A DNA stretch of 64,000 nucleotides from an uncultured bacterium (GTDB taxonomy: Bacteria; Pseudomonadota; Alphaproteobacteria; Sphingomonadales; Sphingomonadaceae), in the NCBI GenBank assembly GCA_903884945.1, contig CAISGR010000279.1:10966-74965 (forward strand). Direction: 5' to 3'. Of this stretch, positions 9,030 to 62,055 are shown one piece after another (positions within the stretch are counted from its first letter, which is position 1; every line of letters starts with the position of its first letter). The position numbers and the translations under genes are program-made. The notes under the pieces are model-generated. The model was not told the DNA's origin and ran no database searches. It was given only the letters and a program-made list of their open reading frames with translations.

Positions 9030-9032
9030 CGA

Positions 9033-9054
9033 AATATATAAGCGCTTATATATT
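9033..9054. promoter_or_regulatory. Perfect 22-bp palindrome, likely MarR auto-operator (AATATATAAGCGCTTATATATT)
   Basis: Perfect AT-rich inverted repeat 3 bp upstream of the MarR ATG in a high-GC background. Confidence 0.8.
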
Positions 9055-9269
9055 CCGGGCTCAATGGCTTTCTGTGAGGGCTTTTCACGGCCGCGACCCG
9101 CTATCGCGGCGGGCGAGGGCCAGCTCGCCAGAGGCGGCGAGCGGCTCCCGCCATGGCCACAGGGCGGCCAAATCATCGGCCGGATCGCGGCACCCGCCAA
9201 GCTGCGGAAATGCCCGGATCGGCAGAACGAGGCGGTGACGATCCTCCACCGACACGCCCTCTTCGCTAA

Positions 9270-9284
9270 TGCGAACCACTTGCA
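9270..9284. promoter_or_regulatory. Putative alphaproteobacterial Fur box (TGCGAACCACTTGCA)
   Basis: One mismatch to TGCGA-N5-TCGCA; about 45 bp upstream of a TBDR-PepSY pair. Confidence 0.55.
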
Positions 9285-9327
9285 ACTTCTGACATCGATC
9301 TCTATCCGGCCGGGAAAAGGAGCACAG

Positions 9328-13836: not shown

Positions 13837-14804
13837 GCCTGGGCAAAGGCCGCGAGATCGGCGTTGAACCGCGTCTTGTGCGTCGTGGGAAGCCCGTGCG
13901 GGGCCGCGGGATAGATCTTCAGCGTCGCCTGCCTGACCAGCTTCGCCGTCAGCCTGGCCGAATCCTCCACGGGCACGATCTGATCGTCCGCGCCGTGCAC
14001 GATGAGGGTGGGCACATCGAACCGCGCCAGGTCCGCGTGGAAATCCTGCTCCGAAAATTGCCTGATGCAATCATAGGCGGCCTTCAGCCCGGCCATCATG
14101 CACATCGACCAGAAGGCATCCCGGACGCCTTCCGAGACCTGGGCGCCGGGCCGGTTGTAGCCGTAGAAGGGCAGACTCAAATCCCGGTAATATTGCGCCC
14201 GGTCAGCCAGCACGCCGGCGCGGATCGCATCGAAGGCTTCGATCGGGGTTCCGGCGGGATTGGCGGGCGACTTGATCATGACCGGCGGGATCGCCGAAAC
14301 CAGCACTGCCTTGCGCACGCGGGCGGTGCCGTGGCGCCCGATATAGCGCGTGACTTCGCCGCCGCCGGTGGAATGACCGACGAGCACCGCATCGGTAATG
14401 TCCAGCGTGTCGAGCAGGCTGGCAAGATCATCGGCATAGGTATCCATGTCGTTGCCGTTCCACGGCTGCCCCGACCGACCATGCCCGCGCCGGTCATGCG
14501 CGATCACGCGAAACCCATTCGACGCCAGATAATAGAGTTGGTCCTCCCACGCGTCGGCGTTGAGGGGCCAGCCATGGGAGAAGACGACCGCAGGGCCGGC
14601 GCCCCAATCCTTGTAGAAGATGCTGGTGCCGTCCTTCATCTGCACGGTGCCCATGGCGATGTCCTTTCTTCTTGCGTGGGGAGCCTGGGCGAAAGCGGCA
14701 GCGCTTCCACCCTCGAACTGGGGAAATGCCGCGGCGGCGACAGCACCTGCGCCCATTTCCAGAATCCGCCGCCGCGACGGGTGCCGCGTCGAAGCATGGT
14801 TCAT
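13833..14804 (-). CDS. Alpha/beta hydrolase, non-heme chloroperoxidase/arylesterase type, with Tat-like leader
   Basis: SRRRILE twin-arginine leader; [26 protein letters not shown] triad. Confidence 0.92.
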
Positions 14805-45869: not shown

Positions 45870-48851
45870 TCAGTAGGCAATCCGGAAGCCGGCCTTGAAG
45901 GTCTGGCCGACCGGATTGAAGATGACGTTGTTGCCGGTGCCGTTGGCCCCGGGGACGAGCGGGGGATCGGTATCGAACAGATTGTCGACGCCGATGTAGA
46001 AGGAGAAATCCCTCTTCTCGCCCGGGTTCAGCTTGTAGGTCGCGAGCAGGTCGACATAGGTCTTCGCCTTGACGAAGTTCGTGTTCGAGCTGTTGGTCGC
46101 GGTGATGACATAGCCGGGCTGCTCGGCGCCGACGAAGGCAGCATTGTAGAAGCCGCTGTCGATGTACCGGACATGGGTGTTGAACGAGAAGTGCGGAGTC
46201 ACGTTCCAGGCCGCGAGCAGGTCGAAGGTCCAGTCGGGGATGCCCGGGGGCGTACCGGCGCGGAGCCCGGTCTGGCCGGCGCGCTGGGTCGGCCCGACCG
46301 CATCGACGGTGATCAGATCCTTCACATAGGAAGCGAGCAGCCGCAGGTTCAGATCGCCGAGCCCGCCGAGCGGCTGGCGATAGCTGACCTCGAAATCGAT
46401 GCCGCGGTTGATCAGCTTGTTCACGTTCTGGAACGTGTCGACGATGTTGGTGATCGGGTTGTTGGCGACATTGCCGTCACCATCCGCATTGGCAGGATCG
46501 CGCGTCACCAGCGAGCAGCTCAGGGCATCGCCCTGGAAGCAGCGCGTCACGATATTCTGCTGGCCGAGGGTGCTGATCGCATCGTCGATCTGGATGTCGT
46601 AATAATCGACCGAGGCGCGGAAGCGGCCGAGAAAGCCGCCCTTGGGCTGGAGCACGACGCCGACCGTGAAGGTGTTCGCCTTTTCCGGCCGCAGGTTCGG
46701 GTTCGAGCCGTTGGTGATCGGCGCGACCGCCTGGACGCCGCCGCGGGCCGGATCGGTCAGGATGCCCTGGGCAAGCAGGGTCGGCCCGAACAATTCGCTG
46801 ACATTGGGCGCGCGGATGTCGCGCGACCGCGTGGCGCGGAAGCGGAGGAAATCGAACGGCTCCCACACGCCGCCCACTTTCCAGGTCGTGACGTCGACCG
46901 AGGAGCTGGCCGCGAAATCGCTCGAGCGCTTGTAATGCGTGCGCCGCACCGCGCCGCTGAGGCTCAGTTCCTGGAAGAAGGGCGTGTTGCCGAGAATCGG
47001 CAACTCGGTTTCGGCATAGCCCTCGGTCACGTCGATCTTGCCCGAGATCAGCGAGCCGTTGCCGGTGAAGAACTGGTTCGCCTGGGCCAGCGCATCGGCG
47101 CCGCCCACGACCTTGTCGCTGCGGAACTCGCCGCCGAAGCCGACCGCGACCGGACCGCCGGGCAGTTCGAACAAATGCCCCTGGATATTCGCCGCGACGA
47201 CATGTTCGGTCGTGCGGTTGGTCTGGTAGCCATTCGCCGTGACATAGGCCTTGGCCGCCGCGAAGGTGCTGCCATTGGCATAGCCGAAGGGATTGAGCGG
47301 TACGCAGGCAGGATCGTCATTGGCGGTGCTCGCATCGGCATTCACACGGCACACGATCTGCCCGCCCGAACGCACCGCATCGACAGCCTTGAGCAGGCGC
47401 GACGTGATCGTGCCGTTGGTCGTGTCGCTGCGGAAATCGTTGCGGCCGAACTGGTAATAGGCATCGACCTTCCAGCTGCCGCCGATATCGTACTGGACCG
47501 ACCCGACCGCGCGATACATGTTGTTGGTGATGCGGATATCGGCCGGGCCGATATCGTCGAAGCCCTTGCCCAGGGTGAAGGAGGTCAGCCCGCCCGCGGC
47601 AAGCAGCGTCGGGATATCGAGCGTCGGATCGGCCGAACGCGGGATGAAGGGATTGTCCGCCTGGATCGTGAGCGCGGTGTTGCGATAGGCGACGCCGCGA
47701 TGCCGACCGGTGAGATGGCCATAGCCGAGGTTGAGACCGAAGGTCAGGCCGGGCGCCGCCTCCCAGTCCAGGTTGGTCATCGCATTGTACCGCTCGGTGG
47801 GCGAGTTGATGTAGAGCCCGCGGAAATAGATGTTCTGGCCTTCGCCCTCGCCGCCGACCTGATAAAGCGAATTGACCATCGAGCCGTACTGGAAGCGCCG
47901 CGGCGTGCCGTCGGCGGCAAAGGTGATGCCGTCGATCGGGCGCAGGACCGGCGTGGCGCGGCCATTATAGGCCGAGGCGGGCGGTGTGGTGACGCCGTTG
48001 AACGGCACGCTCGAGGGGCGGATATCGGCCAGGATATTGTTGGCCGGAATGCCGGTCTGGCCCGGATTGCGGCCGAAGTTCAGCCATTCGTCGCGGCACC
48101 ATTGCCGTTCCTGGCAATCGCCGACGCCGTCGCTCTTCTCATATTCTGCGCCGATGATAACGTGAAGCGAGTCCGAAGCCTTGAAGCCGGCGGCGAAGCC
48201 GAGCTGCGAGTTCGCATTGTCGCCATAGCGGGTGATGCTCTGCTGCGCGTTGAGCTTCAGCCCCTCGAAGCGCTTGTCGAGGATCAGGTTGACGACCCCG
48301 GCGACCGCATCCGACCCGTAGACGGCGGAGGCGCCGCCGGTGACGACTTCGGCACGCGACAGCAGGATCGAGGGGATCATGTTGGTATCGACGGTCGCCT
48401 GCGTCGTCGACGGCACGAAACGCTTGCCGTCGACCAGCGTCAGGGTGCGCACCGAGCCGAGGCCGCGCAGGTCGAGGATGCGCCCGCCGACATAGCCCGC
48501 GGCCGCGGACAGGCCGGACGAGGCCGGGGTCTGCGTGGCGCGGAAGGCGGGAAGCTCGTTCAGCGCGTCGCCGATATTGGTCGAGCCGCGCGCTTCGAGC
48601 CGGTCGGCGCCGACTACGGAAACCGGGGTAGGCGCCTGGAAGCCGGTGGCGAGGCGCGATCCGGTGACGACGATGTCCTTGTCGGCTTCGCTCGGCGTGC
48701 CGGCATCCTGATTGCCGCTCGCCGCCTGCGCGGGCGCGTCCTGCCCCCAGGCGGCCGGCGCCGCCAGCGCAAAGGCCAGCGCGGCCCCGACCGCAACGGT
48801 GCTGACGCCGAGTCGTAAAGTCGCAGAATGGCTGGTGCCCGCTCTCTTCAT
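45870..48851 (-). CDS. TonB-dependent receptor
   Basis: Start MKRAGT; signal peptide, DIVVTGSR, LDLRGLG..RTL.LVDGKR, TGGASAVYGSDAVAGVVN, C-terminal FKAGFRIAY. Confidence 0.93.
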   Translation of the reverse strand: MKRAGTSHSATLRLGVSTVAVGAALAFALAAPAAWGQDAPAQAASGNQDAGTPSEADKDIVVTGSRLATGFQAPTPVSVVGADRLEARGSTNIGDALNELPAFRATQTPASSGLSAAAGYVGGRILDLRGLGSVRTLTLVDGKRFVPSTTQATVDTNMIPSILLSRAEVVTGGASAVYGSDAVAGVVNLILDKRFEGLKLNAQQSITRYGDNANSQLGFAAGFKASDSLHVIIGAEYEKSDGVGDCQERQWCRDEWLNFGRNPGQTGIPANNILADIRPSSVPFNGVTTPPASAYNGRATPVLRPIDGITFAADGTPRRFQYGSMVNSLYQVGGEGEGQNIYFRGLYINSPTERYNAMTNLDWEAAPGLTFGLNLGYGHLTGRHRGVAYRNTALTIQADNPFIPRSADPTLDIPTLLAAGGLTSFTLGKGFDDIGPADIRITNNMYRAVGSVQYDIGGSWKVDAYYQFGRNDFRSDTTNGTITSRLLKAVDAVRSGGQIVCRVNADASTANDDPACVPLNPFGYANGSTFAAAKAYVTANGYQTNRTTEHVVAANIQGHLFELPGGPVAVGFGGEFRSDKVVGGADALAQANQFFTGNGSLISGKIDVTEGYAETELPILGNTPFFQELSLSGAVRRTHYKRSSDFAASSSVDVTTWKVGGVWEPFDFLRFRATRSRDIRAPNVSELFGPTLLAQGILTDPARGGVQAVAPITNGSNPNLRPEKANTFTVGVVLQPKGGFLGRFRASVDYYDIQIDDAISTLGQQNIVTRCFQGDALSCSLVTRDPANADGDGNVANNPITNIVDTFQNVNKLINRGIDFEVSYRQPLGGLGDLNLRLLASYVKDLITVDAVGPTQRAGQTGLRAGTPPGIPDWTFDLLAAWNVTPHFSFNTHVRYIDSGFYNAAFVGAEQPGYVITATNSSNTNFVKAKTYVDLLATYKLNPGEKRDFSFYIGVDNLFDTDPPLVPGANGTGNNVIFNPVGQTFKAGFRIAY

Positions 48852-48893
48852 CGCTCTCTCTCCCATCTCCAACGGTCTCGATGCCGCCAATTG

Positions 48894-48936: not shown

Positions 48937-49390
48937 TTTTTCGGGTCAGCGCGATTGATGCGAAATGCCCGGCGTAACGGACCGAGTGGCGATCTAAGCG
49001 GGCGCCGGATTTGGCGCTTCAAATATCATATACGATCTGCAATAAGGGTCGGGTAGCGCTACCATTTCGGGCGCGACTCCGGCGACTCCCTCAAGGGCAG
49101 AAGGGCGCACCGGTCAGGAGAAGGAGGCCGGAATGGGCATTGCGCGCAGGGACGTGGCCGGAGCGCCGGGGGCGATACGCTCCCCTGTTCGGCAGGGCCG
49201 CCCGCCGGAGAGCGGCGCGGATCATGCGGCCAGCCGCATGGGCATGGAACGGCCTTCCCGTGACCGGGACCAATGTCGGCGCCGTGCGCAGCATCGTAAC
49301 GGGGCCGACCGCGCCGCTCGATCAGCTCGACATGCACGCCGCAACCGAATGGGGCCGGCGGGGATATTCCAAATGAACATCAAGGGAGAA

Positions 49391-52021
49391 ATGCGCGTGA
49401 GGAAATCTATTCTGGGCCTGTCGCTCGCGGCGACCCTGCTCTCCGGCACCGCGCTGGCGCAGACCGCGCCGGCCGACGCGCCGTGGCGCGACCCGGCGCT
49501 GCCCCGGGAGCAGCGGGTGGACGCGCTGATCGCGCAGATGACGATCGAGGAGAAGGCCTCGCAACTCGTCAACCAGGCGCGCGCGATCCCGCGGCTCGGC
49601 GTGCCCGCCTATGACTGGTGGAGCGAGGCGCTGCACGGCGTGGCGAACAACGGCTATGCCACCGTCTTCCCCGAGCCGATCGGGCTGGCCGCGACCTTCG
49701 ACGCGCCGGCGATCAAGGACATGGGCGTCGCGATCGGCACCGAGGGGCGGGTGAAATGGAACCTGATCGAGAAGGCGGGGGGCGAGCACCACATCATGCA
49801 GGGGCTGACCTTCTGGTCCCCCAACATCAATATCTTCCGCGATCCGCGCTGGGGCCGCGGGCAGGAGACCTATGGCGAGGACCCGTACCTGACCGGCCGG
49901 CTGGGCGTGAACTTCGTGCGCGGCATGCAGGGGGACGACGCGCACTATTACCGCGTGTCCTCGACCGCCAAACATTATGCGGTGCACAGCGGCCCGGAGC
50001 CGAGCCGCCACAGCGACAATATCGTGGTCAGCCTGCACGACGAGGAAGACACCTATCTCCCCGCGTTCCGCGCACTGGTGACGGAGGGCAAGGTCGAATC
50101 CGTGATGTGCGCGTACAATGCGATCAACGGCCAGCCGGCCTGCGCCAGCGACTTCCTGCTCAAGGAGCGGCTGCGCGGCGCCTGGGGCTTCAAGGGACAT
50201 ATGGTGTCCGACTGCGACTCCATCGCCGATATCGAGCGCGGGCATCATTACACCAAGACCTTCGCCGAGGCGGCGGCCGTCTCGCTCAAGCTGGGCGTCG
50301 ACAGTGACTGCGCCGAATTCGGCCGCGCCACCGGGCCGACCTCCGACTACGACCGCTATGTCGAGGCGATGAAGACGGGGCTGGTGAGCCAGGACGTGGT
50401 CGACCAGTCGCTGCGCCGGCTGTTCACCGTGCGGATGCGGCTCGGCATGTTCGATCCGCCTGCAATGGTGCCCTATAACAGCATCCCCGAAAGCGCGCTC
50501 AACGCGCCCGAGCATGGCGCGCTGGCGGCGAAGCTGGCCCGCGAATCCATGGTGCTGCTGAAGAACAACGGCCTGCTGCCCGTGAAGCCGGGCGTGAAGA
50601 GGATCGCCGTGGTCGGCCCGCTCGCCGATCAGGTGGACGTGCTGGCGGGCAATTATCGCGGCACGCCCGTCGCCCCGGTGACCGCGCTCGAGGGCATCCG
50701 CAAGGCCTTTCCGGGCGCCGAGGTGGTGTTCGAGCCGGGCACCGACTTCCTGCGGCTGGCCGAGCCGGTGCCTGCCGCCGCGCTTTCCACCGCCGACGGC
50801 CAGCCCGGGCTGAAGGCCGAGTTCTGGCGCGGCGGGGACTATAGCGGCGCGCCCGCGGTGAGCCGCGTGGACGCGACGGTCGCCTATGACCGCAACATGC
50901 CCGCGGTGATCCCCGATGCGGCGGTCGTCTCGGCGCGCTGGACCGGCTTCGTGGCGGCGCCGGAGAGCGGCCAGTACAAGATCGGCATCAACGGCCGGTC
51001 GGCGAAACTGTGGATCGACGACAAGCTGGTCGCCGACAACAGCGATCCGCAGCGCGGCAACACGATGATCGACATGACCTTCGAAAAAGGCGTGAAGCAT
51101 AGCGTACGGATCGAACAGACGCCGAGCCGCTTCCCGCCGCGCTTCGTGTGGAACCAGGTACATGCCGATGCGCTGGCGCGCGCGGTGGCGGCGGCGAAGC
51201 AGGCCGATCTCGTCATCGGCGTGGTCGGCATCACCTCCGCACTGGAGGGCGAGGAGATGACGGTCAACGTGCCCGGCTTCGTCGGCGGCGACCGCACCAG
51301 CCTGGACGTGCCGGCCGACGAGGAAGCCGTGCTCAAGGCAGTGAAGGCGACGGGCAAGCCGCTCGCGGTGGTGCTGATGAACGGCTCGGCGCTGTCAGTG
51401 AACTGGGCCGCGGCCAATGCCGATGCGATCCTCGAGGCCTGGTATCCCGGCCAGGCCGGCGGCACCGCGATCGGCGAGACGATCTCGGGCGCGAACAACC
51501 CGGCGGGGCGGCTGCCGGTGACCTTCTACACCGGGGTCGACCAGCTGCCGCCGTTCAAGGACTATGCAATGAAGGGGCGGACCTATCGCTACTTCTCGGG
51601 CAAGCCGCTGTACCCGTTCGGCCATGGGCTGAGCTATACCAGCTTCGCCTATGGCACGCCGGTGCTGTCGAGCGCGGTGGTGAAGGCGGGCGCGCCGCTG
51701 GGCGTGGATGTCGAGGTGCGCAACACGGGCACGCGCGCGGGCGACGAAGTGGCGCAGCTCTATCTGAGCTTCCCGCAGGCGCCGGGGATGCCGATCCGGG
51801 CGCTGCGCGGCTTTGCCCGCGTCCATCTGGCGCCGGGGGCGAGCACGAGGGTGCATTTCGACCTGGACGCGCGCGGGCTTTCGAGCGTGACCGAGGCCGG
51901 CAAGCGGATCGTGGCGCCGGGCGCCTATAGGCTCAGCGTCGGCGGCGGCCAGCCGGGAACGGGCGCCCCGACGGCGGCGGCCGGGTTCACGGTGGCGGGG
52001 ACGATGGCGTTGCCGGAGTGA
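49391..52021 (+). CDS. Secreted GH3 beta-glucosidase/beta-xylosidase with PA14 insertion
   Basis: RBS AAGGGAG; signal peptide; WWSEALHG, WSPNINIFRDPRWGRGQETYGEDP, KHYAVHSG, VSDC (nucleophile), EGEEM, Fn3-like C-terminus. Confidence 0.94.
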   Translation: MRVRKSILGLSLAATLLSGTALAQTAPADAPWRDPALPREQRVDALIAQMTIEEKASQLVNQARAIPRLGVPAYDWWSEALHGVANNGYATVFPEPIGLAATFDAPAIKDMGVAIGTEGRVKWNLIEKAGGEHHIMQGLTFWSPNINIFRDPRWGRGQETYGEDPYLTGRLGVNFVRGMQGDDAHYYRVSSTAKHYAVHSGPEPSRHSDNIVVSLHDEEDTYLPAFRALVTEGKVESVMCAYNAINGQPACASDFLLKERLRGAWGFKGHMVSDCDSIADIERGHHYTKTFAEAAAVSLKLGVDSDCAEFGRATGPTSDYDRYVEAMKTGLVSQDVVDQSLRRLFTVRMRLGMFDPPAMVPYNSIPESALNAPEHGALAAKLARESMVLLKNNGLLPVKPGVKRIAVVGPLADQVDVLAGNYRGTPVAPVTALEGIRKAFPGAEVVFEPGTDFLRLAEPVPAAALSTADGQPGLKAEFWRGGDYSGAPAVSRVDATVAYDRNMPAVIPDAAVVSARWTGFVAAPESGQYKIGINGRSAKLWIDDKLVADNSDPQRGNTMIDMTFEKGVKHSVRIEQTPSRFPPRFVWNQVHADALARAVAAAKQADLVIGVVGITSALEGEEMTVNVPGFVGGDRTSLDVPADEEAVLKAVKATGKPLAVVLMNGSALSVNWAAANADAILEAWYPGQAGGTAIGETISGANNPAGRLPVTFYTGVDQLPPFKDYAMKGRTYRYFSGKPLYPFGHGLSYTSFAYGTPVLSSAVVKAGAPLGVDVEVRNTGTRAGDEVAQLYLSFPQAPGMPIRALRGFARVHLAPGASTRVHFDLDARGLSSVTEAGKRIVAPGAYRLSVGGGQPGTGAPTAAAGFTVAGTMALPE

Positions 52022-52618
52022 GCCACGGATAGCTCTACGGACGGGGGCACGGTGCGGACGCCGTGCCCCGCGCGTTGTGGAAAACAGCCTTGAGAAGGAG
52101 CGGACACGGGATCGCGCGAACCGGCTTGCGGTGCATTCCTGCCACAGGCCGGGCGCGGTTGAATCGACGGCGCAGGCGCTGCGGGCGACCGCCACTGTTG
52201 AGAATGTCATGCGGTTTACTGACATTTTGGCCGAGCCGGCGCCTCGCGCGGCGATGTGCAACATTATATAATAATATCAGTTATTTATTTTCGATCCGCT
52301 CTAGCTCCGCGTCCGGCTCTCCATGCTGATTTAGCCTCTTCTATTTCGGGCAACTGCCTCTTCTTGTGCCGAGCGTGCCCGCCGTGTCCTTTCGTCGAAG
52401 ATCGACCGATCCTCGAAGGTTCAATCGGGGCGTCACGCCGAATTCCGGGCGATGGCAGCGAAGCGCCGGCCGACCAGGCAGGATCTGCCACGGGGTCTGT
52501 GTGTCGTCAGCACGCAATACCAGCACTCGCGTTCAGGCCCGAGGCCCAAACCAGCCCTCCCCGTCGATTCAAATCCTCCCCCTAAGCCCCCTAATGCCCC
52601 AAGATCAGGAGGTGTCGG

Positions 52619-54364
52619 ATGGCTATCAATATCCCCCCGCTCGGCGACGCGGCCCGCGCGCCCCGCCCCGTCGGATCGACGCTCGCCCCGAACATCACGG
52701 ACCGGGCAATCCACGCGTTGCCGCCCGAGACAACCGACAAACCAGCAACATCGAGCATGTCAGACATTGCGCCCGTGGAAGAACAAAGCCTCAAGGCGTG
52801 GATCGAGCGGTTTCTGGAGCGGAACGAGCATCTCGCCCGTCCGCAGCCCACATCCCCGCCACCATCGGCGTTCGACGGAGCGCCCGCGACCTGGCAGGCA
52901 CCGGAGCACTTGGCCGCGCTCAATCCGCACGGCGGCTATATCGCGATGCACCTGATCTCGCGGATGACGGACGACCTGGCCGAGCTTACCCGTAGCAAGC
53001 GGGCCGCGACCTATTCCGAAGTCTATGAATATCTGGGCCACGCGCTGGTGGCCCTCGGGGTCGCGCCGCAGGGCTACACGGCCGAAGAAGCGACAAAATG
53101 GTGGCGCATGGGTGGCTCCTCCGTGCTTCAGGCCGCGGCGAATGACCCACATGACGGAGACGGCAACTGGGCCGAACTCGATGCGCCAACCCGACCTGCT
53201 GCGCTGAACGGGGTAGCCATTGACCGTTGGGCTGATCTACAGACCCATTCCGCAGGTCACCGATATATCGAGGCCGCGCTGGGTGCTCAGCGCGCCGCGA
53301 CCGACCTCGCCGCTCGCTACGATCCGTCTTCACCATGGGCGGCGCCGTTGGAACCGGCCGGAGACCTCCATCTGGGCGGCGCTCTCGACGGCAATGTCGC
53401 TGATGGCGCGCCGCTCCATCCCAGGATTTCGCGCTTTTCTCTGGCAGGCGGGGAAGCGCCCAAGCCCGGTGCCGCGACCAAGGCAATCGCGCAGGCAGAT
53501 CAGACGGGCGCAACCAGGCGGCATGAACGGCCGGCGGCCCCGCTCGGCACGGACCTATCGACCTATGACATGGGCTTTGGCGACAAGGCCCATGGTTTCC
53601 ACGGAGACTATCGCACCACCCCACAGGCACGCGCCTGGCTGACCGGATTCCAAGGCCTCGCCGGCCCGGCCACACCCTATCCGGACGGATCGCCCGGCAA
53701 CGAGAAGCTGTCGACGAAGGGACGGCGCAAGATACGAGAAGATGTCGGCTATCTCTACACCCTGCCCGAAGTAAAGGCCCTTCTCGACCTGATTTCCGAA
53801 ACAGAGGGTTCAGCGGTAGACGGCTATTACCGCACTCACGCTCCAAATAAGAAAAGACTTCCGAATCTCGACACCTTTCATGGTGCAGTTCCGAGCGGCC
53901 GGTACCAGATCAAGCGAGACAATTGGGAAAATTATGGCGGAGCGTGGTGGTCCAGGAACGACTTCTCCGAAATCACTCAGGATATCATTGCCATAACACA
54001 GCTTCGCCATAAAGGTGCAATTGACCAGCTTATGAAAGGAAATTTAAGCGGAGCACTCAGCATCGCGGCGAACATATTCGCCTCCATTCCGAAGAGCGTG
54101 GCTGAAGATCATAGTCGCTATACAAAGGGCTACACCGACGACAGTAAGGGACAATCCTTAACCAAAAAGGCGCGGAAGAAGATCATTCTCGACCAGCCGA
54201 CACCGGTGGATTTCCGAGATCTTCCCGCACGGTTCGAATATTACTTGAAATCCCGCCGCGCAGAATTTAACAGAGCTGAACAAGCGTGGAAGACCAGCAA
54301 GATCCTCCCCAAGGCCTTCATCTCACCGTTGAGGTGGCGGTCTTTTGGCCTTGATGGATTCTAG
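52619..54364 (+). CDS. 581-aa protein: unknown N-terminal region plus C-terminal lambda-R-like (GH104-type) muramidase/lytic transglycosylase
   Basis: RBS AGGAGG; KALLDLISETEG...GY...SGRYQ...W...DFSEITQD..A...L..KGA......G.....L......FASIP aligns by eye with lambda R (KAFLDMLAWSEG...AGRYQ...DFSPKSQD...WASLP). Confidence 0.8.
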   Translation: MAINIPPLGDAARAPRPVGSTLAPNITDRAIHALPPETTDKPATSSMSDIAPVEEQSLKAWIERFLERNEHLARPQPTSPPPSAFDGAPATWQAPEHLAALNPHGGYIAMHLISRMTDDLAELTRSKRAATYSEVYEYLGHALVALGVAPQGYTAEEATKWWRMGGSSVLQAAANDPHDGDGNWAELDAPTRPAALNGVAIDRWADLQTHSAGHRYIEAALGAQRAATDLAARYDPSSPWAAPLEPAGDLHLGGALDGNVADGAPLHPRISRFSLAGGEAPKPGAATKAIAQADQTGATRRHERPAAPLGTDLSTYDMGFGDKAHGFHGDYRTTPQARAWLTGFQGLAGPATPYPDGSPGNEKLSTKGRRKIREDVGYLYTLPEVKALLDLISETEGSAVDGYYRTHAPNKKRLPNLDTFHGAVPSGRYQIKRDNWENYGGAWWSRNDFSEITQDIIAITQLRHKGAIDQLMKGNLSGALSIAANIFASIPKSVAEDHSRYTKGYTDDSKGQSLTKKARKKIILDQPTPVDFRDLPARFEYYLKSRRAEFNRAEQAWKTSKILPKAFISPLRWRSFGLDGF

Positions 54365-54403
54365 GCGCCCTTTTTCACATCGGACAATGGTCGCGGGGCA
54401 GGC

Positions 54404-55021
54404 ATGAATGTTTCCCGGTTCGCGTGTCGTATCACCCTCGCCGCGCTCTTGCCCTTGCTCGCCCTGGCATCGTGCGCGCCACCGGCCGCGAGAAAGGACA
54501 TGGTTACGCCCGGAATCGACAAGCCGGCCTGGGTGGTGAAGGCGGATTTCGATCGTCTGTTTCCCTGCCTGGACGGCGGCTTCAGAACATGGGACGATCG
54601 CGACGACCGGGACTGTGTCGGTGGGGCGACCGTCGAGCCCGCCGACTCGCCGGCGCCACCGGATCGGGTGGAGATTTACATCGCGCTATTCGATTTTGCC
54701 GAGGACGCCGTAACCAGAATCAGGCGGGAAATTCCGCCGATGTACGGCCAGGTGATGCGCTATCTCTTCCCCCACTGGCCAGAAGCGAACGCCTGGCTTT
54801 CACGCAGCCTGGAACATACGCGCGAAAGCGGCTGCCCGCGCATTGCCCATGTCCGGGACCTGTGGATCATCGTGCGACCCGGCTACAATGACGCGGCGCA
54901 GGCTTATGCCGACGTCATGATCACCAGATCCGCCGGCGAACTCGCCGAGTGGCGGAAGTTGGACGACCCGATGTGCGACGGACCGCCTTTCGTGGAGGAA
55001 ATCCGCCTGCCGAACGCCTGA
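54404..55021 (+). CDS. Lipoprotein of unknown family (candidate immunity protein)
   Basis: Lipobox LALAS-C24 after a hydrophobic stretch; four further Cys; 39 bp downstream of the muramidase gene. Confidence 0.75.
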   Translation: MNVSRFACRITLAALLPLLALASCAPPAARKDMVTPGIDKPAWVVKADFDRLFPCLDGGFRTWDDRDDRDCVGGATVEPADSPAPPDRVEIYIALFDFAEDAVTRIRREIPPMYGQVMRYLFPHWPEANAWLSRSLEHTRESGCPRIAHVRDLWIIVRPGYNDAAQAYADVMITRSAGELAEWRKLDDPMCDGPPFVEEIRLPNA

Positions 55022-55147
55022 CGAAATGACCGGCGCACGGTGGCGCGCGATCATGCGCCAGGCGCCCGGTCACGCAGGAAAATCCGGCGCGCTTTCTTCA
55101 AAGCGCCCCGGGCATGGACTTGCCGACGCCGGCCTGAAATTACCCGC

Positions 55148-55801
55148 TCACTTGGACGTCGCGGGAGTCGATATCTTGCTTGGCGTCGGGGCAGTCGCCG
55201 GAGCGGCGACGGTGGCGGGAACCGCAACAGGCGCCGCAGCGGGCACGCCCTGCAGGGGCATTTCTGGCCCGCTGGCCAGCGCCACCGGTACGTCCTCATC
55301 CAGATAGGCCTTGATGATCGAGCCCGCCGGAATCCGGGCGCTGGTACCGGTCATGAAGAACCCTGCAGGCAGGAAGACGATCGCCGAGACGGCGGCCGCG
55401 CCCACGCCGCCGGCGACACCCTTGTCGTCAGTCGTGCCGGTAAGCCTGATCTGCCGATCACCGACGCGGAGATACAGGACGCGTGCGTCGAAATGGCCAG
55501 ACTTCCCCCACATGCCCTTGTTCCTGACGCTGGTGATCTCCCCCACGCCTGGCGTGCCGACCGGGATGACAACCTGGCCGTTGAGCGAGACGGGTTCGCT
55601 CGTTTCGATCTCAAACCGCTGGCCGACGCGAAGCGCCTTGTGCTCGGTCGTCAGTTCGGTGCGCGTCCGCACCGGCACCTCCGTTCCGATCCGCAATATC
55701 GATGCCTGCGGTGCCCCGATCACCAGCGCCTGCTGCGCAGCGAGCGGCGCAGACATGGTGACGAGCGCGATCGACATCGCGCCCAAAAACGCCTTGTTCA
55801 T
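55148..55801 (-). CDS. Exported hypothetical protein with TrbI/VirB10-like beta domain
   Basis: Signal peptide MNKAFLG...AAQ; GTEVPVRT..EL......VGQRF......PV..NGQVVIP.GT...GEIT; hydrophobic GGVGAAAVSAIVFLPAGFF hairpin; Pro/Ala tail. Confidence 0.65.
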   Translation of the reverse strand: MNKAFLGAMSIALVTMSAPLAAQQALVIGAPQASILRIGTEVPVRTRTELTTEHKALRVGQRFEIETSEPVSLNGQVVIPVGTPGVGEITSVRNKGMWGKSGHFDARVLYLRVGDRQIRLTGTTDDKGVAGGVGAAAVSAIVFLPAGFFMTGTSARIPAGSIIKAYLDEDVPVALASGPEMPLQGVPAAAPVAVPATVAAPATAPTPSKISTPATSK

Positions 55802-56224
55802 GAAAAATCCCCCCCGGCACATCCTCGTCATCGAGTCGTGCACGCAGGGAGAAGAGGCTAAATCCCATGCGCCGTCAATAATTGGCCCACTGATTATTTT
55901 CCAGGATTTTATTGCACATCATCCAATCGTTCACAAATAATGGCAGGCAACCCAATATTTCTGCACGCAACAATTCACAACGGCAGATTTTAGAACGCAG
56001 GATACAGCACTTCCACTTGCGAGGCTTGTCCGATGCCGCGCGACAGCCGAATTTCGCTGGCAAGGCGCCCATCGACGGAGCTTTGTCTGGAGGTTCAAGC
56101 ACCATTAGCCATCAAGCGCGCCCGGATCGCGCCGCGCCATTACAACCACAGTGGCTTCACCCCGCGTTGACCCGTCCCGACCCGCCCGCCACCTTCGCGG
56201 CGGGCACGGAGCGCGGGGGATCTC

Positions 56225-58201
56225 ATGGCAACGCAGCAATCGGCGACCGTCAGCATCACCAACGCCAGCCGCGGCAATGCCGTCATCACCCTGTTCCACA
56301 GCAACAGCAGCAACGGGACGCAGCGCGGGCAATGGTCGGTCGGGCCGGGCGCGACGGGCGGGCCCCTGCCGGTGCTGTTCCAGACCGGCTTCGGCACCGG
56401 CGGCATCCTGGATTACTGGTCAGTCATGCTGTTCGTGAAGGACGGCCCCGATGCGGGGCTGTATATCAGCAGCGGCTCGGCGATCGTCCCGTGGTGGAAG
56501 GAAGCCCAGCTGCAGCATGCCGATGCCGGCGCGTCGCCGACCCTGTCGGTGAGCCCGACCAGCTTCGCCATCGCGCTGGCTTCCGGCACGACGCAGGACG
56601 GCACGACGCGGCTGTCGCCGGCGGCGACCAAGCCGATCAGCCATGTCTTCGTGCTGATGCTGGAGAACCGTTCGTTCGACAACATGCTGGGCATGTCCCG
56701 CCTGCCCGGCATCACCGCGGCCTCGACGGCGGATTCGAACAGCTATGTCGACCCCAAGGGCGTGACTCACACCTATTATGTGCAGCGCGGCGCCCCGCTG
56801 GCGCTGCCGTCCGATCCGGGCCACGAATTCGCCGACGTGGTCGAACAGCTATGCGGCCAGGGCAAGACCTTCGACAATGTGCCGCCGGCGCACATGGCCT
56901 ATCCGCCGATCACCAATGGCGGCTTCGCCGCCAGCTATGCCACCTCGACCACCGAATATCCGCACCTGCGGCCGCCGGCGATCGACGTGCAGGAGATCAT
57001 GGACTGTTTCGACACGCCGGCGCAGCTGCCGGTGCTCTACGCGCTGGCGGAGAAATTCGCGGTGTGCGACCACTGGTTTTCCTCGCTGCCCGGCCCGACC
57101 TGGCCGAACCGCTTCTTCCTGCACGGCGCATCCTCTGCCGGCTTCGACGACAGCCCGAAGAACACGCAGATCGTGCGCTGGGAGATACCGGGGAACGGCT
57201 TCAACTATCCGCATGGATCGATCTTCCAGCACCTCGACTCGGCGCGCATCCCCTATCGCTTCTACCATGATGCCGGTGCGGACTTCCTCAGCAGCTACAG
57301 CGACGATCCGGCTGCGGGATCGATCCTGGGGGCAGTGCCGCAGGTCTCGGCGCTGACCGGCATCAGCCTCACGGATTTCAACGGGATGGAGCAGTTCGCA
57401 TCCGACCTGCAGGGCCCCTACCCTTATCCCTATACCTTCATCGAGCCGCATTACGGGGACCTGACCGGCAATTATGCCGGCGGCTCATCCCAGCATCCGA
57501 TGGACGACCTCTATGGCGGCGAGCATCTGCTGGCGGCGACGGCCAAGGCGATCCAGGATTCGCCTTATTGGGAATCGAGCCTGTTGCTGGTCATCTATGA
57601 CGAGCATGGCGGCTTCTATGATTCGGTCCAGCCGCCGGCGGCGGTCCCGCCGGGCGACAACCCCGACTATGGCTATAATGTCCATGGCTTCGACTTCACG
57701 ACGCTGGGGGTGCGGGTGCCGGCGGTGATCGTGTCACCGCTGATCCAGCACTACACGGTCGACTGCACCCCCTACGACCATTCGTCGGTGCCGAAGCTGC
57801 TCGAGGACCTGTGGCAGCTCGCGCCGCTGACCCAGCGCGATGCGGCGGCCAAGTCGCCGCTCGCCGGCCTGGCCACCACGCCCCGCAGCGACCGCATCGA
57901 CATTCCGACCCCGATGCCGCCGCTGGGCGCGGCCAAGGCGGTGCGGACGATGGCGGCGCGCGCGGCGGCACTGGCCCAGCCGATCCCGGAATCGGGCAAT
58001 CTGGTCGGCGCGCTGGCCAATCTGCGCAAGGCCGATGTCGAGCTGTCGGGCGGCACACCCCTGGGGATCGCCGCGGTTGCCAGCCGCTATGCGGCCGTGC
58101 GGACCATGGCCGATGCCGAGGGCTATGCCGCCGAAGTGCTGGCGAAGGTGCGCATGGTGCAGCGCGAGCGCGCGACAGTGGCGCGGCAGCGCCCAAGCTG
58201 A
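56225..58201 (+). CDS. Phosphoesterase/phospholipase C-family (AcpA/PlcH superfamily) enzyme with about 130-aa N-terminal beta-rich domain
   Basis: HVFVLMLENRSFDNMLG, DPGHEF, CDHWFSSLPGPTWPNR, YDEHGGFYD, GVRVPAVIVSP, YDHSS; no signal peptide. Confidence 0.88.
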   Translation: MATQQSATVSITNASRGNAVITLFHSNSSNGTQRGQWSVGPGATGGPLPVLFQTGFGTGGILDYWSVMLFVKDGPDAGLYISSGSAIVPWWKEAQLQHADAGASPTLSVSPTSFAIALASGTTQDGTTRLSPAATKPISHVFVLMLENRSFDNMLGMSRLPGITAASTADSNSYVDPKGVTHTYYVQRGAPLALPSDPGHEFADVVEQLCGQGKTFDNVPPAHMAYPPITNGGFAASYATSTTEYPHLRPPAIDVQEIMDCFDTPAQLPVLYALAEKFAVCDHWFSSLPGPTWPNRFFLHGASSAGFDDSPKNTQIVRWEIPGNGFNYPHGSIFQHLDSARIPYRFYHDAGADFLSSYSDDPAAGSILGAVPQVSALTGISLTDFNGMEQFASDLQGPYPYPYTFIEPHYGDLTGNYAGGSSQHPMDDLYGGEHLLAATAKAIQDSPYWESSLLLVIYDEHGGFYDSVQPPAAVPPGDNPDYGYNVHGFDFTTLGVRVPAVIVSPLIQHYTVDCTPYDHSSVPKLLEDLWQLAPLTQRDAAAKSPLAGLATTPRSDRIDIPTPMPPLGAAKAVRTMAARAAALAQPIPESGNLVGALANLRKADVELSGGTPLGIAAVASRYAAVRTMADAEGYAAEVLAKVRMVQRERATVARQRPS

Positions 58202-58523: not shown

Positions 58524-60371
58524 ATGAAGTTAATGACGCGGATCTCCATCAGTAAACGAATATTAATCATCGGAGCTGCGTCCCTGATCGGCCTGATATT
58601 GGTGATCCTGCTGTCGATCGCGCAACTTAACAGCGCGCTGCGCAGCGGCTTCAACGATCGCACCAAGCAAACACTCGACGTCGCCTATAGTGTTCTCGAA
58701 CGATACCAGGCCGATGAACAGGCCGGCCGGATGACGCGCGCCCAGGCCCAGCAGGCCGCGAAGGAAGCGATCAGCGCCATGCGCTTCGGCAAGAAGGATT
58801 ATTTCTTCATCTTCGACACCGGCTTCATGATGCTCGTGCATCCGGCCAAGCCCGAGCTGATCGGCACGAACATCGCGAACAAGCCCGACGCCAAGGGCAA
58901 GTTCCATTATCGCGAGATGATGCAGGTGGCGACGACGCGCGGCGCCGGCTTCGTCCAATATGACTACAAGATGCCCGACGGCAGCGGCAACAAATCGAAG
59001 ATCTCCTACGTCCGCGCCTTCAAGCCATGGGGCTGGCTGATCGTCACTGGCGTGTTCGATTCCGAGATCCGCAGCGCAGTCGTCTCCGCCGCGCTCGATC
59101 TCGCCAAGGTCGTGGCCGCCATCCTCATCGGGCTGGCCGCGCTGATCTGGGTGGTGAGCCGCTCGGTCACCGTGCCGGTCAACCGGATCACGCAGCGCAT
59201 GCGCAGCCTGGCCGCCGGCGACACCCGATCGGACATTCCGGGCACCGACCGCCGGGACGAACTCGGCCAGATGGCGGAAGCGCTCAAGGTGTTCCGCGAC
59301 GATGCGATCGCCAAGGGCGTGGCCGAAGCCGCAAAGGCCGAAGCGGATGCCGACCAGGCGATGATCGTCACCCTGATCTCCGACAAGCTGGAAGGCCTGT
59401 CCCACGGCGACCTGACGGGCACGATCGAGGAGCGCGTGCCCGGCGCCTATGCCGCGCTCAAGAACAATTTCAACACGGCGCTGACCAACCTGCGCGGCCT
59501 GATCGCCGCGCTGGCGGAAGCATCGCAGAGCATCGAGACGGGATCGAACGAAATCGCCTCCGCCTCTGACGATCTGGCGCGGCGGACCGAAAGCAATGCC
59601 GCCAGCCTCGAGCAAAGCTCCGCCGCGCTCTCGCAGATGAATGCCCGGCTCAGCTCGAGCGCGGATTCGGCGGATCGCACGGTGGGGTGCGCACAGGACG
59701 CGATCGCGATGGTCCGGTCCGGCCGGTCGACCGCCGACCAGGCGAGCGAAGCGATGGACCGCGTGTCGGACAGCGCCAAGGGCATCGACAGCGTGATCGA
59801 GGGCCTCGACAAGATCGCGTTCCAGACGCGCGTGCTCGCGATGAACGCCGCCGTGGAAGCCGGGCGTGCCGGCGAGGCCGGCCGCGGCTTCGCGGTGGTG
59901 GCCGACCTCGTCTCGGCGCTGGCCATGCGCGCCGAGGAAGAAGCGGGCCGCGCCCGCGAGCAGCTGACCGCGACGCAGGACGATATCGTGATCGCCGTCG
60001 GCGCGGTGAACCGGGTGGACGCAGCGCTGGCGGATATCACCGGCAGCGTCGAGCAGGTCCACCAGTTCGTCGACGCCATGGCGAACGACAATCGCGCGCA
60101 ATCGCTGACGATCAGCGAGATCGCCACCGCCGTGAACGCCATGGACCGCGCGACCCAGCAGAATGCCGCGATGGTGGAGGAGACCTCCGCCGCCGCCCGC
60201 ACCCTGGCGAACGAAGTCGGCAAGCTCACCGACCAGTCCTCGCGCTTCAAGACCCAGCGATCCGACATGCGGACGACTGCCGCGCCGGCCCGCGCCATGC
60301 CGCCGGCGCCGCTGCCGCCGGGTGCCCTGAACGGGGCGCGAACCGCCGCCACGCTGGAATTCGCCGCCTGA
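58524..60371 (+). CDS. Methyl-accepting chemotaxis protein with single Cache sensor
   Basis: TM-Cache (YFFIFD...LVHP, K.SYV..F.PWGW..G)-TM-HAMP; IAFQTRVLAMNAAVEAGRAGEAGRGFAVVA; QQNAAMVEE. Confidence 0.95.
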   Translation: MKLMTRISISKRILIIGAASLIGLILVILLSIAQLNSALRSGFNDRTKQTLDVAYSVLERYQADEQAGRMTRAQAQQAAKEAISAMRFGKKDYFFIFDTGFMMLVHPAKPELIGTNIANKPDAKGKFHYREMMQVATTRGAGFVQYDYKMPDGSGNKSKISYVRAFKPWGWLIVTGVFDSEIRSAVVSAALDLAKVVAAILIGLAALIWVVSRSVTVPVNRITQRMRSLAAGDTRSDIPGTDRRDELGQMAEALKVFRDDAIAKGVAEAAKAEADADQAMIVTLISDKLEGLSHGDLTGTIEERVPGAYAALKNNFNTALTNLRGLIAALAEASQSIETGSNEIASASDDLARRTESNAASLEQSSAALSQMNARLSSSADSADRTVGCAQDAIAMVRSGRSTADQASEAMDRVSDSAKGIDSVIEGLDKIAFQTRVLAMNAAVEAGRAGEAGRGFAVVADLVSALAMRAEEEAGRAREQLTATQDDIVIAVGAVNRVDAALADITGSVEQVHQFVDAMANDNRAQSLTISEIATAVNAMDRATQQNAAMVEETSAAARTLANEVGKLTDQSSRFKTQRSDMRTTAAPARAMPPAPLPPGALNGARTAATLEFAA

Positions 60372-60477
60372 ACGCGGCCCCCGCGCCACCTGCCCACCCC
60401 TGCACCGCCCCCGGCAGCGCCACCAAGCGGGGGAGGTGCGGCCAGCCTTTGCCCGCCTTCCCCACCTGGAGCCACCC

Positions 60478-62055
60478 ATGAATTCCGCGATATCCCGCAT
60501 CCTGCCCGGCATCGGCCTTGTCGCGCTGTTCAACTGGCCGATTGCCGCCGGCGCCCAGACGCAGCCCGGAACGCCGACGCTGGAGAATGCGACGATCCTG
60601 GTGATCGCCCAGACCGACCAGCTCAGCCCGCGCGCGTTGCCGTCCACCCCGCCGAGCGAAGCGACGCAGGACCGCGCCCCGGCCAACCATTCGACCCGAG
60701 CCTATCCGCCCCAGGCCGACGGCCATGGCGTGAAGCTGGGCGGCTACAACAAATCCCGCTGGGCCGAGGACTGGCGCAAGATGCGCGACCCCGCCAATCG
60801 CCACGACTGGATCGACCGGCTGAAATTCCTGCCGCTCGACGCAGCCGGCGATATCTATGTGACGCTTTCGGGCGAAATGCGCCTGCGCAGCGATTTCTAC
60901 GCGAATCCGGGCCTGGTCGAAGCGCCGTCACGCCGCGAGGACCTGCTGCGGCTGATGGGCGGCGCCGATCTCCATCTCGGCCCGAATGTGCGCTTCTATG
61001 GCGAACTCGCGCATGGCGGGATCGGCGGCGACAATATCGGTACGCCCGCGGCCAAATCGCGCAACGCGCTGTTCGTCCAGCAGGCGTTCGGGGAGGTGAG
61101 CGGCACGATCGGGCCGGTCGTCCTGGGCGCGCGGTATGGCCGGCAGGAATTCACCGACGGCCCGTCGCTGCTGGTGTCGCAGAAGGACAACAACACGATT
61201 CGCAGCGCGCTCAACGGCTTTCGCGGATGGGTGCAGACCGATCGCGTGCGCGCCGACATCTTCGACTTCCGCTATACCCAGCTCGGCACCGGGGGGACCG
61301 GCGACGACCGGTCCGACCCGGCGACATCCTTCTCCGGCATCACCGCCGGGGTGGTGCTGGCCAGCCACAAGGGCCGCAAGCTCTATCTCGATCCGTTCGC
61401 CTGGCGCGAACGCATGGATGCGGTGCGCTGGGGCAAGACCACCGCGCGCTCGGTGCGCCATTTCTACGGGGCGCGGCTGTGGGGCGATGTCGGCCGGCTG
61501 ACGCTCGATTGGACGGTGGATCGCCAGGACGGCGATTTCGGCGGGCGCGACATCAGCGCCTGGCATTTCTCGCTGGCGCAGACCTATGCGCTGAAGGTGC
61601 ATGCGCTGTCGCCCGAGATCGGCATCCATTTCGATTATGGCAGCGGCGGCGGCAGCTATGACGGCGGCACGATCCGGGGCGCGACCGCCCCGGTGGCCGG
61701 CACCATCAGCTACAGCTACCAATCAGTGCTCAACATCACCAACCTGTTCCAGATCGGCCCGAACGTGACGATCGCGCCGATCAAGAACATATCGGTGACG
61801 ACTGAATATCTGCTCGGCTGGCGCGCCTCGGCAGCGGATGCCGTCTATCGCGGCAACGGCTCCGCCTATGCCGGGACGGAGAAGCTCAGCGGAAGCCATG
61901 TCGGCGATTCGCTGCGCGCCCAGGCCACCTGGAAGATCACGCCGCGCCTGTCGCTGATCGGGCGCTACGAATATTTCATGGCGGGATCGCTGCTGAGCCG
62001 GGTGAACTATACCGATTCGCAGTATCTGGCGGGCTGGGTGAGCTACCGCTTCTGA
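60478..62055 (+). CDS. Alginate-export-family (AlgE-like) outer-membrane porin
   Basis: YNKSRWAEDW, DRLKFLPL, GEMRLR, GRQEF..G..L.VS..DNN.IR...NG; C-terminal SYRF. Confidence 0.85.
   Translation: MNSAISRILPGIGLVALFNWPIAAGAQTQPGTPTLENATILVIAQTDQLSPRALPSTPPSEATQDRAPANHSTRAYPPQADGHGVKLGGYNKSRWAEDWRKMRDPANRHDWIDRLKFLPLDAAGDIYVTLSGEMRLRSDFYANPGLVEAPSRREDLLRLMGGADLHLGPNVRFYGELAHGGIGGDNIGTPAAKSRNALFVQQAFGEVSGTIGPVVLGARYGRQEFTDGPSLLVSQKDNNTIRSALNGFRGWVQTDRVRADIFDFRYTQLGTGGTGDDRSDPATSFSGITAGVVLASHKGRKLYLDPFAWRERMDAVRWGKTTARSVRHFYGARLWGDVGRLTLDWTVDRQDGDFGGRDISAWHFSLAQTYALKVHALSPEIGIHFDYGSGGGSYDGGTIRGATAPVAGTISYSYQSVLNITNLFQIGPNVTIAPIKNISVTTEYLLGWRASAADAVYRGNGSAYAGTEKLSGSHVGDSLRAQATWKITPRLSLIGRYEYFMAGSLLSRVNYTDSQYLAGWVSYRF

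Follow-up and report, generated by a model that had tools for sequence, protein, structure and literature searches.

The term polymorphic toxin system is used here in the sense of Zhang et al. 2012 (PMC3482391). The MuF family offers the nearest precedent for phage-linked delivery of such toxins: these proteins of temperate phages have been proposed to be packaged in the capsid and delivered when the phage ejects its contents (Jamet et al. 2017, PMC5576092; Bxa/Apk2, PMC11699363). In the bacteriocin pesticin, a phage-lysozyme fold is combined with parts for receptor binding and translocation, and a periplasmic protein, Pim, confers immunity (Patzer et al. 2012, PMC3390615). Phage T4 encodes Spackle, which acts in the periplasm to inhibit the tail lysozyme gp5 (PMC7677548), and the killing type IV secretion systems (T4SSs) of Xanthomonadales deliver peptidoglycan hydrolases with lipoprotein immunity (PMC6759196). 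Here we analyzed a gene pair in a 64,000-nucleotide stretch of DNA (the window: positions 10,966 to 74,965 of the forward strand of contig CAISGR010000279.1, assembly GCA_903884945.1) from an uncultured bacterium of the Sphingomonadaceae. The two genes encode a 581-aa protein, P0001, and a lipoprotein, P0002, and a first-pass annotation of the bare sequence had proposed that they are the toxin and the immunity protein of a polymorphic system, in which both the N-terminal trafficking domain and the immunity family would be new. On the comparative evidence given below, we put the probability that the pair is an effector-immunity cassette of a previously undescribed polymorphic toxin family at roughly 0.68. 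Systems of this kind are known, whereas this N-terminal domain, these lipoprotein families and their association with T7-like prophages had not been described.

One N-terminal domain is fused to many unrelated C-terminal regions

The pair and its parts are laid out as follows (positions are those of the window).

52607..52612, plus strand: ribosome-binding site AGGAGG, read from the sequence, 6 nt upstream of the effector ATG; strong
52619..54364, plus strand: effector gene P0001, 581 aa (open reading frame [ORF] and translation, 13 homologues, alignment A1, AlphaFold2 [AF2] model)
52619..52780, plus strand: P0001 aa 1-54, acidic Pro-rich disordered leader (predicted local distance difference test [pLDDT] <50; N-termini compared)
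52781..53158, plus strand: P0001 aa 55-180, conserved N-terminal domain, hereafter N-domain (alignments A2, A4 and A5; always N-terminal)
53159..53530, plus strand: P0001 aa 181-304, variable disordered Ala/Gly/Pro-rich linker (not conserved in A1; pLDDT <50 at aa 173-300)
53531..54364, plus strand: P0001 aa 305-581, swappable C-terminal toxin module (G+C content [GC] 0.548; same module fused to a phage protein in L002/L016)
53768-54103, plus strand: lambda-R-type lysozyme core, aa ~384-495 (homology to lambda lysozyme)
53804..53806, plus strand: E396 codon GAG, predicted catalytic Glu (codon checked; equivalent to lambda R Glu19)
54404..55021, plus strand: predicted immunity lipoprotein P0002, 205 aa (translation, family alignment A3)
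54404..54475, plus strand: P0002 signal peptide with lipobox L21-A22-S23-C24 (read from the translation)

No hydrophobic signal-like stretch was seen in the first 60 residues of P0001, in line with the first-pass reading of an ORF without a signal peptide. The first 380 residues had been described as Pro/Ala-rich and unmatched. Their composition (16.8% Ala, 9.5% Pro, 9.5% Gly) and the lack of any Pfam or NCBIfam match even at E<=10 bore this out, but the region was not featureless. Alignment of P0001 homologues resolved four parts, namely the leader, a helical N-domain, a variable linker and a conserved module from about aa 305, and residues ~55-175 formed a conserved helical domain that was modeled by AF2 with a pLDDT of ~90 at aa 110-170. 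The core of the N-domain reads GGYxAMxLxSRMxxDLxxxTxxKRAATYxEVxxYLGHALVAxG...WW. The leader opens with a loosely conserved motif, MxxI-P/D-P (MAINIPPLGD in P0001), which is short and has no statistical support in the ~55 N-termini compared. Foldseek with the N-domain model against the PDB returned nothing below E=2 and thus gave no structural clue to the trafficking route.

Full-length homologues of P0001 are scarce: only 13 were found in a collection of 5.8 billion proteins, and the few with a named source were labeled Sphingomonas. A word-indexed homologue search with aa 40-185 returned the query alone, and an exhaustive profile search against 1.84 billion representative proteins was used instead. 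This N-domain profile recovered 60 representative proteins, all of which carry the domain in N-terminal position. Their C-terminal regions fell into at least 24 unrelated clusters; fusion of the N-terminus to other toxin domains, the decisive check of the first-pass proposal, was thus observed. Recognizable tips were Peptidase_M23, T6SS_VgrG3-like_C lysozyme, eCIS_core/DUF4157, DUF6973, lambda lysozyme and SLT-like domains, and further tips gave weak hydrolase and M91 matches. One tip was a Pput_2613-type nucleic-acid deaminase (E 1.3e-35), with an Imm10-like gene next to it. Strong N-domain matches (E<1e-28) were obtained for the M23, VgrG3-like, eCIS_core and lysozyme types, and the weakest matches may owe their score to a single phage sequence in the profile. 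The genome collection was scanned with alignment A4. The distribution was patchy (8 of 301 genomes). Polymorphic toxins are classed according to the trafficking domain at their N-terminus. Since it is found in neither Pfam, NCBIfam nor the PDB, the N-domain marks out a family of its own and hints at an as yet uncharacterized means of delivery; we regard it as the family-defining candidate trafficking domain.

The genome that contains the window encodes a second member of the family, of ~953 aa, in which the N-domain is joined to an SLT-like and an M23 domain (C109:15586-18477, minus strand, equal to L028:7586-10477). This protein has long Pro/Ala repeats, with the SLT-like domain in the middle and the M23 domain at the C terminus. 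Its neighbors are a proline iminopeptidase gene downstream and a gene for a DUF308 membrane protein upstream.

The C-terminal module contains a lambda-R-type core

The first-pass annotation had aligned the C-terminal part of P0001 with the phage lambda R endolysin, and this relationship was recovered in three ways. phmmer against the PDB matched aa 407-492 of P0001 to 1am7/3d3d (E 9e-7), the family profile matched lambda lysozyme across lambda residues 9-128 (E 1.6e-10), and the PHROG family phrog_90, annotated 'endolysin', matched aa 386-499 (E 6e-12). In the profile alignment, the catalytic Glu19 of lambda (AWSEGT) lies opposite a family-invariant Glu, and E396 is invariant in the 14 family sequences of alignment A1. 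The motifs named in the first pass were confirmed as well, with GRYQ starting at aa 427, DFSEITQD at aa 448 and ASIP at aa 488. A conserved pre-domain (GFGD...DYRTT) precedes the lysozyme core within the module, which also has a conserved helical tail that ends in AFISPLRWRSFGLDGF. The AF2 model of P0001 was confident for aa 300-500. Foldseek with the full-length model against the PDB and BFVD had a sole match, the lysozyme-bearing hub of cyanophage A-1(L) (8kea, E 7.8e-4); 1am7 was not returned.

Lambda R is a lytic transglycosylase. The term 'muramidase' used in the first pass is therefore imprecise for the effector: by homology, its core is predicted to be a lambda-R-type (GH104-like) lytic transglycosylase, as opposed to a muramidase that acts by hydrolysis. 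Homologues of 45-60% identity at non-prophage sites have kept the catalytic Glu and most of the module.

A lipoprotein gene accompanies the module

The ORFs of P0001 and P0002 are separated by 39 bp. As had been read in the first pass, P0002 has an L-A-S-C lipobox (Cys at residue 24) and extra cysteines; C55, C71, C144 and C191 are invariant or nearly so in family alignment A3. Relatives of P0002 have either a lipobox or an uncleaved hydrophobic anchor, and P0002 had no NCBIfam, Pfam or PHROG match. The four cysteines and the lipobox indicate a periplasmic location.

P0002 homologues lie directly 3' of the lysozyme module in L001 (Sphingomonas sp. QA11), L002/L016, L010, L020 and L022 (both from metagenome-assembled genomes), L025, L031 and L032. 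Tandem immunity arrays were found in L010 (three P0002-type copies), in L025 from genome G293 (two copies plus one orphan) and in L007. One clade of lysozyme-module sequences (100/99 support) pairs with a second lipoprotein family, B, which has tandem paralogues (L003, L007, L029), and all other lysozyme-module sequences pair with the P0002-type family A. Toxin clade and lipoprotein family agree in 9/9 known contexts. The M23 type and the '524-aa' type each have their own downstream lipoprotein gene, and in G293 the SLT-like type has an orphan P0002-like gene and an L024_285 homologue ~0.9 kb downstream of it. Indeed, every toxin type examined, bar the C109 copy described above, has its own downstream lipoprotein or secreted-protein gene. 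Orphan fragments were seen in L001, where they correspond to the N-domain, the SLT-like domain and the 524-aa C terminus.

P0002, a lipoprotein with predicted disulfides, thus accompanies the module wherever the module is present, and the two have diversified together. The anatomy that defines a polymorphic toxin system (PMC3482391) is all there: a trunk that is conserved, tips that are swapped, immunity genes that match them, and both arrays and orphans. This supports the first-pass proposal of a toxin-immunity pair with a candidate trafficking domain and a putative immunity family that are both new.

At L001 6569-19115, two tandem N-domain cassettes and the orphans stand between a transpeptidase-like gene and the Sf6-type small and large terminase genes; at the related locus L009 (18512-20339) nothing separates the transpeptidase gene from the terminase. 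In L001, the junction of the cassette is marked by a duplicated 3' transpeptidase fragment at 9641-9940. L009, which belongs to a fragmented metagenome-assembled genome, also contains at 8356-9422 a frameshifted N-domain, a VgrG3-like_C lysozyme fragment and a truncated P0002-type lipoprotein gene, and this region looks like a decaying or mis-assembled mixed cassette.

N-domain toxins and their tips occur in T7-like prophages

A strong link to T7-like prophages, not foreseen in the first-pass annotation, emerged from the loci of the homologues. L002 and L016 represent one phage lineage, in which the genes run as follows: tail tube B, gp13-like, a protein of 571 aa that bears a divergent N-domain, gp14-like, an internal virion protein of 957 aa, a homologue of the lipoprotein, tail fiber and endolysin. 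At its C terminus, the internal virion protein has the module of the window (280 residues, 55% identity), and the lipoprotein is 35% identical to P0002. The 571-aa protein matched the profile built without phage sequences only marginally (E 0.027); its assignment to the N-domain family rests on a blastp match of 1.6e-5 and on the clearer case of S. oligophenolica. In the prophage of that species (L024, G165:C60:66001-86000), gp13, gp14, a 496-aa N-domain protein, an Imm10-like gene, a 970-aa internal virion protein and a lipoprotein gene follow one another. The core motif of the 496-aa protein is nearly identical to the chromosomal ones (E 3e-11 with the phage-free profile), and its C-terminal end is a Pput_2613-like deaminase. 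The 970-aa protein ends in an M23 module that is 52% identical to the M23 domain of the C109 toxin. In the same prophage (L024 10325-12206, minus strand), the deaminase toxin and the 128-aa Imm10-like gene lie between two gp14-like copies; an Imm10-like gene of 84% identity stands as an orphan in phage contig L016 ahead of a toxin with a different tip.

The module was also found with a lipoprotein homologue beside gp14 in G207, where the two are fused to or follow a T7-like internal virion protein, and with a lipoprotein gene directly upstream of a T7-type portal gene in viral contig L032. The presence of module and lipoprotein on or beside ejection proteins, together with tips common to both contexts, argues that toxin tips and immunity genes have been exchanged between the N-domain trunk and phage ejection proteins. 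Genes for N-domain toxins also stand among those for the capsid-packed, ejected proteins of T7-like phages. The homologues are not confined to intact prophages: in 4 of the 6 module-bearing genomes of the 301-genome sample, the module occurs as an N-domain fusion outside prophages.

The genome that contains the window has a T7-like element of its own (C24:1-20000, equal to L027). This prophage remnant has a split tail tube B gene, in two ORFs (13407-14429 and 10697-12550), and the tail tube is followed by gp13-like and gp14-like genes, by 5.5 kb of opposite-strand glutaminase/P450/DyP-like genes and by a 690-aa internal virion protein (1840-3912) without any C-terminal toxin tip.

The cassette stands alone in a low-GC islet

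In the window, the cassette is alone in a 4.2-kb low-GC islet between GH3 glycosidase and phosphoesterase genes. The flanks of the islet and the neighboring genes are as follows.

52022..52618, no strand assigned: islet left flank, GC 0.616, no supported gene (109-aa ORF at 52256-52585 with no family match or relative in any locus)
55022..56224, no strand assigned: islet right flank, 1.2 kb, no supported gene, extending up to the phosphoesterase gene
45870-48890, minus strand: TonB-dependent receptor
49133-52021: GH3 glycosidase
56225-58201: phosphoesterase
58524-60371: chemoreceptor
60436-62055: alginate-export porin

The GC of the aa 305-581 module is that listed above (0.548), compared with 0.666 for aa 1-304 and 0.673 for the window, so that the first-pass observation of a lower GC in the lysozyme domain than in the upstream part of the gene holds. 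GC at third codon positions (GC3) is 0.56-0.77 over the whole islet versus 0.87-0.89 in the flanking GH3 and phosphoesterase genes. The low GC and GC3 support acquisition of the islet.

The ~1.8 kb of islet sequence outside the pair (55022-56224 and 52022-52618; GC 0.61-0.69) contains no supported gene. Right-flank ORFs of 93, 209 and 273 aa had no Pfam or NCBIfam match, are of low complexity and had no relatives in the fetched loci or in their own genome, and the 93- and 209-aa ORFs had no match in PHROGs; besides the pair, the small ORFs of the islet look non-coding. The islet flanks share no repeats with the genome, contain no recognizable integrase or att site, and matched none of the fetched loci and nothing else in the genome. 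PADLOC gave no match. The neighbors are ordinary chromosomal genes, and no secretion or phage gene lies within the window, consistent with the first-pass statement that no secretion machinery is visible there. The phosphoesterase/phospholipase-C-like gene at 56225-58201 is itself rare, with a homologue in 1 of 25 relatives (51% identity); the accessory region may therefore reach beyond the islet.

The first-pass annotation had cited type VI secretion system (T6SS) effectors as background and had called for a check of the genome for secretion loci. The T6SS sheath gene TssC (PF05943) is absent from this genome, which is 99.99% complete. The T6SS background thus does not apply, and T6SS delivery in this genome was ruled out. 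TssC is also absent from 5 of 7 other N-domain genomes and from all five strong ones in the genus sample, and no Pfam match to T6SS marker domains (MIX, FIX, PAAR, VgrG or an Hcp fusion) was found in aa 1-383 at E<=10. On the T4SS side, four VirB4 homologues were found in the genome. A housekeeping role in wall remodeling was also rejected, in view of the patchy distribution, the low GC and the lack of the export signal that a resident periplasmic enzyme needs.

Possible mode of action and alternative explanations

If the pair is an effector-immunity cassette, the module would reach the periplasm of a target cell, cut the MurNAc-GlcNAc bond of peptidoglycan and weaken the sacculus. In the producing cells and their kin, periplasmically anchored P0002 would bind and block the enzyme. 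Two results weigh against this explanation. The A3 profile of the P0002 family had no match in the PDB at E<=10, and a search with the known partner families found no recognizable immunity gene for the C109 toxin, either beside it or elsewhere in its genome.

The evolution of the family, and probably its function as well, is bound up with T7-like temperate phages. Toxins with the N-domain might be expressed with T7-like or defective particles, be carried in or on them and, in the way suggested for MuF toxins, enter the envelope at ejection, and the immunity lipoprotein could also protect lysogens from particles of their own kind. The prophage link also makes it possible to read the lipoprotein as a superinfection-exclusion protein. 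As delivery route, we consider phage particles the leading candidate, at somewhat less than even odds, and a soluble bacteriocin a weaker one, with other routes, or none, making up the remainder. We hold a broader version of the phage route only tentatively. T7-like phages of Sphingomonas, or defective particles, may be contact-independent injectors whose toxins come from the core block and, in trans, from chromosomal islets and are loaded via the N-domain, with the lipoproteins protecting lysogens and kin. Such injectors would be, equally tentatively, a Gram-negative podovirus counterpart of MuF with trans-encoded cargo, and cells would be hit in the envelope or the cytoplasm.

In favor of the phage link, the gp14 homologue phrog_418 was found in 10/10 N-domain genomes versus 33/301 genomes of the genus sample. 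For the five strong N-domain genomes within that sample the hypergeometric p is 1.2e-5, a statistic that ignores phylogeny and genome size. This limit is one of several points that weigh against delivery by particles. The co-occurrence would also arise if phages merely spread the cassettes, and most N-domain genes are 50-250 kb from a gp14 homologue or on other contigs. The chromosomal-type N-domain was not found in IMG/VR, and the N-domain has no structural match among solved structures. Moreover, when the N-domain was compared by hhalign with the first 300 residues of phage internal virion proteins, the probability was 0.05%, which leaves their shared MP-V-P-I-E / I-P-P-I-E-D-like start as an anecdotal motif only. 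Finally, the interrupting metabolic genes and the split tail-tube gene indicate that the T7-like element of this genome is probably defective; the cassette may therefore now act by another route or only as immunity.

The main rival to delivery by phage particles is a soluble pesticin- or colicin-like bacteriocin, which would be released by cell lysis, bind an outer-membrane receptor via the N-domain, reach the periplasm by threading its disordered leader through that receptor and cleave peptidoglycan there, with the lipoprotein serving as immunity protein in the manner of Pim. The architecture fits such a protein, with no signal peptide, a 55-residue disordered leader with a short motif, a folded domain, a long linker and an enzyme acting in the periplasm, and pesticin provides a precedent. 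The cassette also stands alone, with its immunity gene immediately downstream and no conserved accessory or secretion genes nearby, in a genome without a T6SS, and lysis-dependent release could account for the prophage co-occurrence. Yet no TonB or Tol box is recognizable, and the N-terminal motif contains prolines. Known TonB boxes are unlike such a motif, and the P0001-family starts (MxxIDP, IPPIED) bear no resemblance, judged by eye, to D/E-T-x-x-V TonB boxes. No Pfam match to pesticin or colicin domains was found, the tip repertoire (deaminase with Imm10, VgrG3-like, DUF4157, M23) is typical of contact- or injection-delivered polymorphic toxins and not of colicins, and N-domain toxins inside the internal-virion-protein block of prophages are left unexplained. 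We consider a bacteriocin unlikely.

Less probable again is that the pair is a non-antagonistic phage leftover, in which a virion lysin for DNA ejection was accompanied by a Spackle-like exclusion lipoprotein against the lysin of incoming phages and only the lipoprotein shield, or neither gene, is active here. The phage-borne copies suit this explanation better than do the intact N-domain fusions. The occurrence of module and lipoprotein on or beside T7-like ejection proteins, the precedent of Spackle and gp5, the degraded state of the resident T7-like element and the lack of other supported genes in the islet would all agree with this. However, P0001 is an intact N-domain fusion with a strong ribosome-binding site and is no fragment of an ejection protein, many toxins of the N-domain family, the deaminase among them, are something other than lysins, and antagonism loci typically contain immunity arrays and orphan toxin fragments; the retention of the catalytic Glu and most of the module at non-prophage sites also speaks against it. 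It is very improbable that P0001 is a substrate of another secretion system, be it one of four VirB4-type T4SSs, a flagellar or an unknown exporter, with the N-domain as recognition signal. The VirB4 homologues and the lipoprotein-paired peptidoglycan hydrolases of the Xanthomonadales T4SSs lend it some support, but the effectors of those systems share a C-terminal XVIPCD, whereas here the C-termini differ and the N-terminus is conserved, and no examined locus adjoins T4SS genes.

Whatever the route, the family supplies at least 20 candidate toxin domains, many without annotation, each together with a candidate immunity partner, and lambda-type lytic transglycosylases gain a new family of candidate inhibitors in the P0002 type. 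Should the link to phages prove functional, their particles would be interbacterial weapons with chromosomally encoded cargo, and lysogens would carry matching immunity or superinfection-exclusion genes. This would connect phage ejection biology, superinfection exclusion and bacterial warfare, and would make the long-proposed idea of virion-delivered toxins testable in a harmless soil genus that can be cultured.

Comparison with known systems

P0001 shares with the phage lambda R endolysin (1am7, 3d3d) a homologous core, the catalytic Glu and the GRYQ, DFS..QD and ASxP motifs, at ~25-30% identity, as judged by eye from the profile alignment. Unlike in lambda R, this core lies inside a 277-residue module with extra conserved N- and C-terminal segments and is paired with a lipoprotein. 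Lambda R is a stand-alone lysis enzyme, whereas the family module is fused to the candidate trafficking domain or to an ejection protein.

The glycoside hydrolase effectors of T6SSs (Tge/Tgi, VgrG3/TsiV3) resemble the pair as predicted here in periplasmic cleavage of glycan strands and in an adjacent cognate periplasmic immunity gene, and one sister toxin type of the N-domain family carries a VgrG3-like_C domain. They differ in that the producing genome has no T6SS and P0001 has no MIX, FIX, PAAR or VgrG part. As to the T4SS effectors with XVIPCD, for which the profile itself was not searched, the C-terminal regions of the N-domain toxins are unrelated between toxin types and only the N-terminus is common.

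With pesticin and Pim (PMC3390615), the pair has in common the lack of a signal peptide, the predicted recruitment of a phage lysozyme fold for the periplasm and a putative periplasmic immunity protein. Pesticin has a fold of the T4-lysozyme type, a defined TonB box and an FyuA-binding domain, whereas P0001 is of the lambda-R type by homology and has an unrelated N-domain and no recognizable TonB box.

Like T4 Spackle, which acts on gp5 (PMC7677548), P0002 would be a periplasmic protein that inhibits a virion-borne lysozyme, and phage-borne lipoprotein genes do lie beside module-bearing ejection proteins. A phage-encoded periplasmic protein beside a virion lysozyme is found only for the phage-borne homologues (L002/L016, L032, G207); the window copy is not in a phage. 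There is no sequence similarity to Spackle, and P0002 is a lipoprotein with two predicted disulfides. Unlike Spackle, the P0002 family also occurs with non-phage N-domain effectors and in tandem arrays.

The MuF toxins share with the N-domain family a conserved N-terminal domain, a variable C-terminal toxin, one or more adjacent immunity genes, a location among virion genes of temperate phages and a proposed exit from the capsid at ejection. The N-domain itself is not MuF (SPP1 gp7), to which it has no Pfam match. MuF genes lie next to the portal gene in siphoviruses of Firmicutes, whereas N-domain toxins lie in the gp13-gp16 internal-core block of T7-like podoviruses of Alphaproteobacteria. 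Most N-domain members, including the window copy, are outside prophages, and the N-domain family, unlike MuF, includes many predicted cell-wall toxins with putative lipoprotein immunity.

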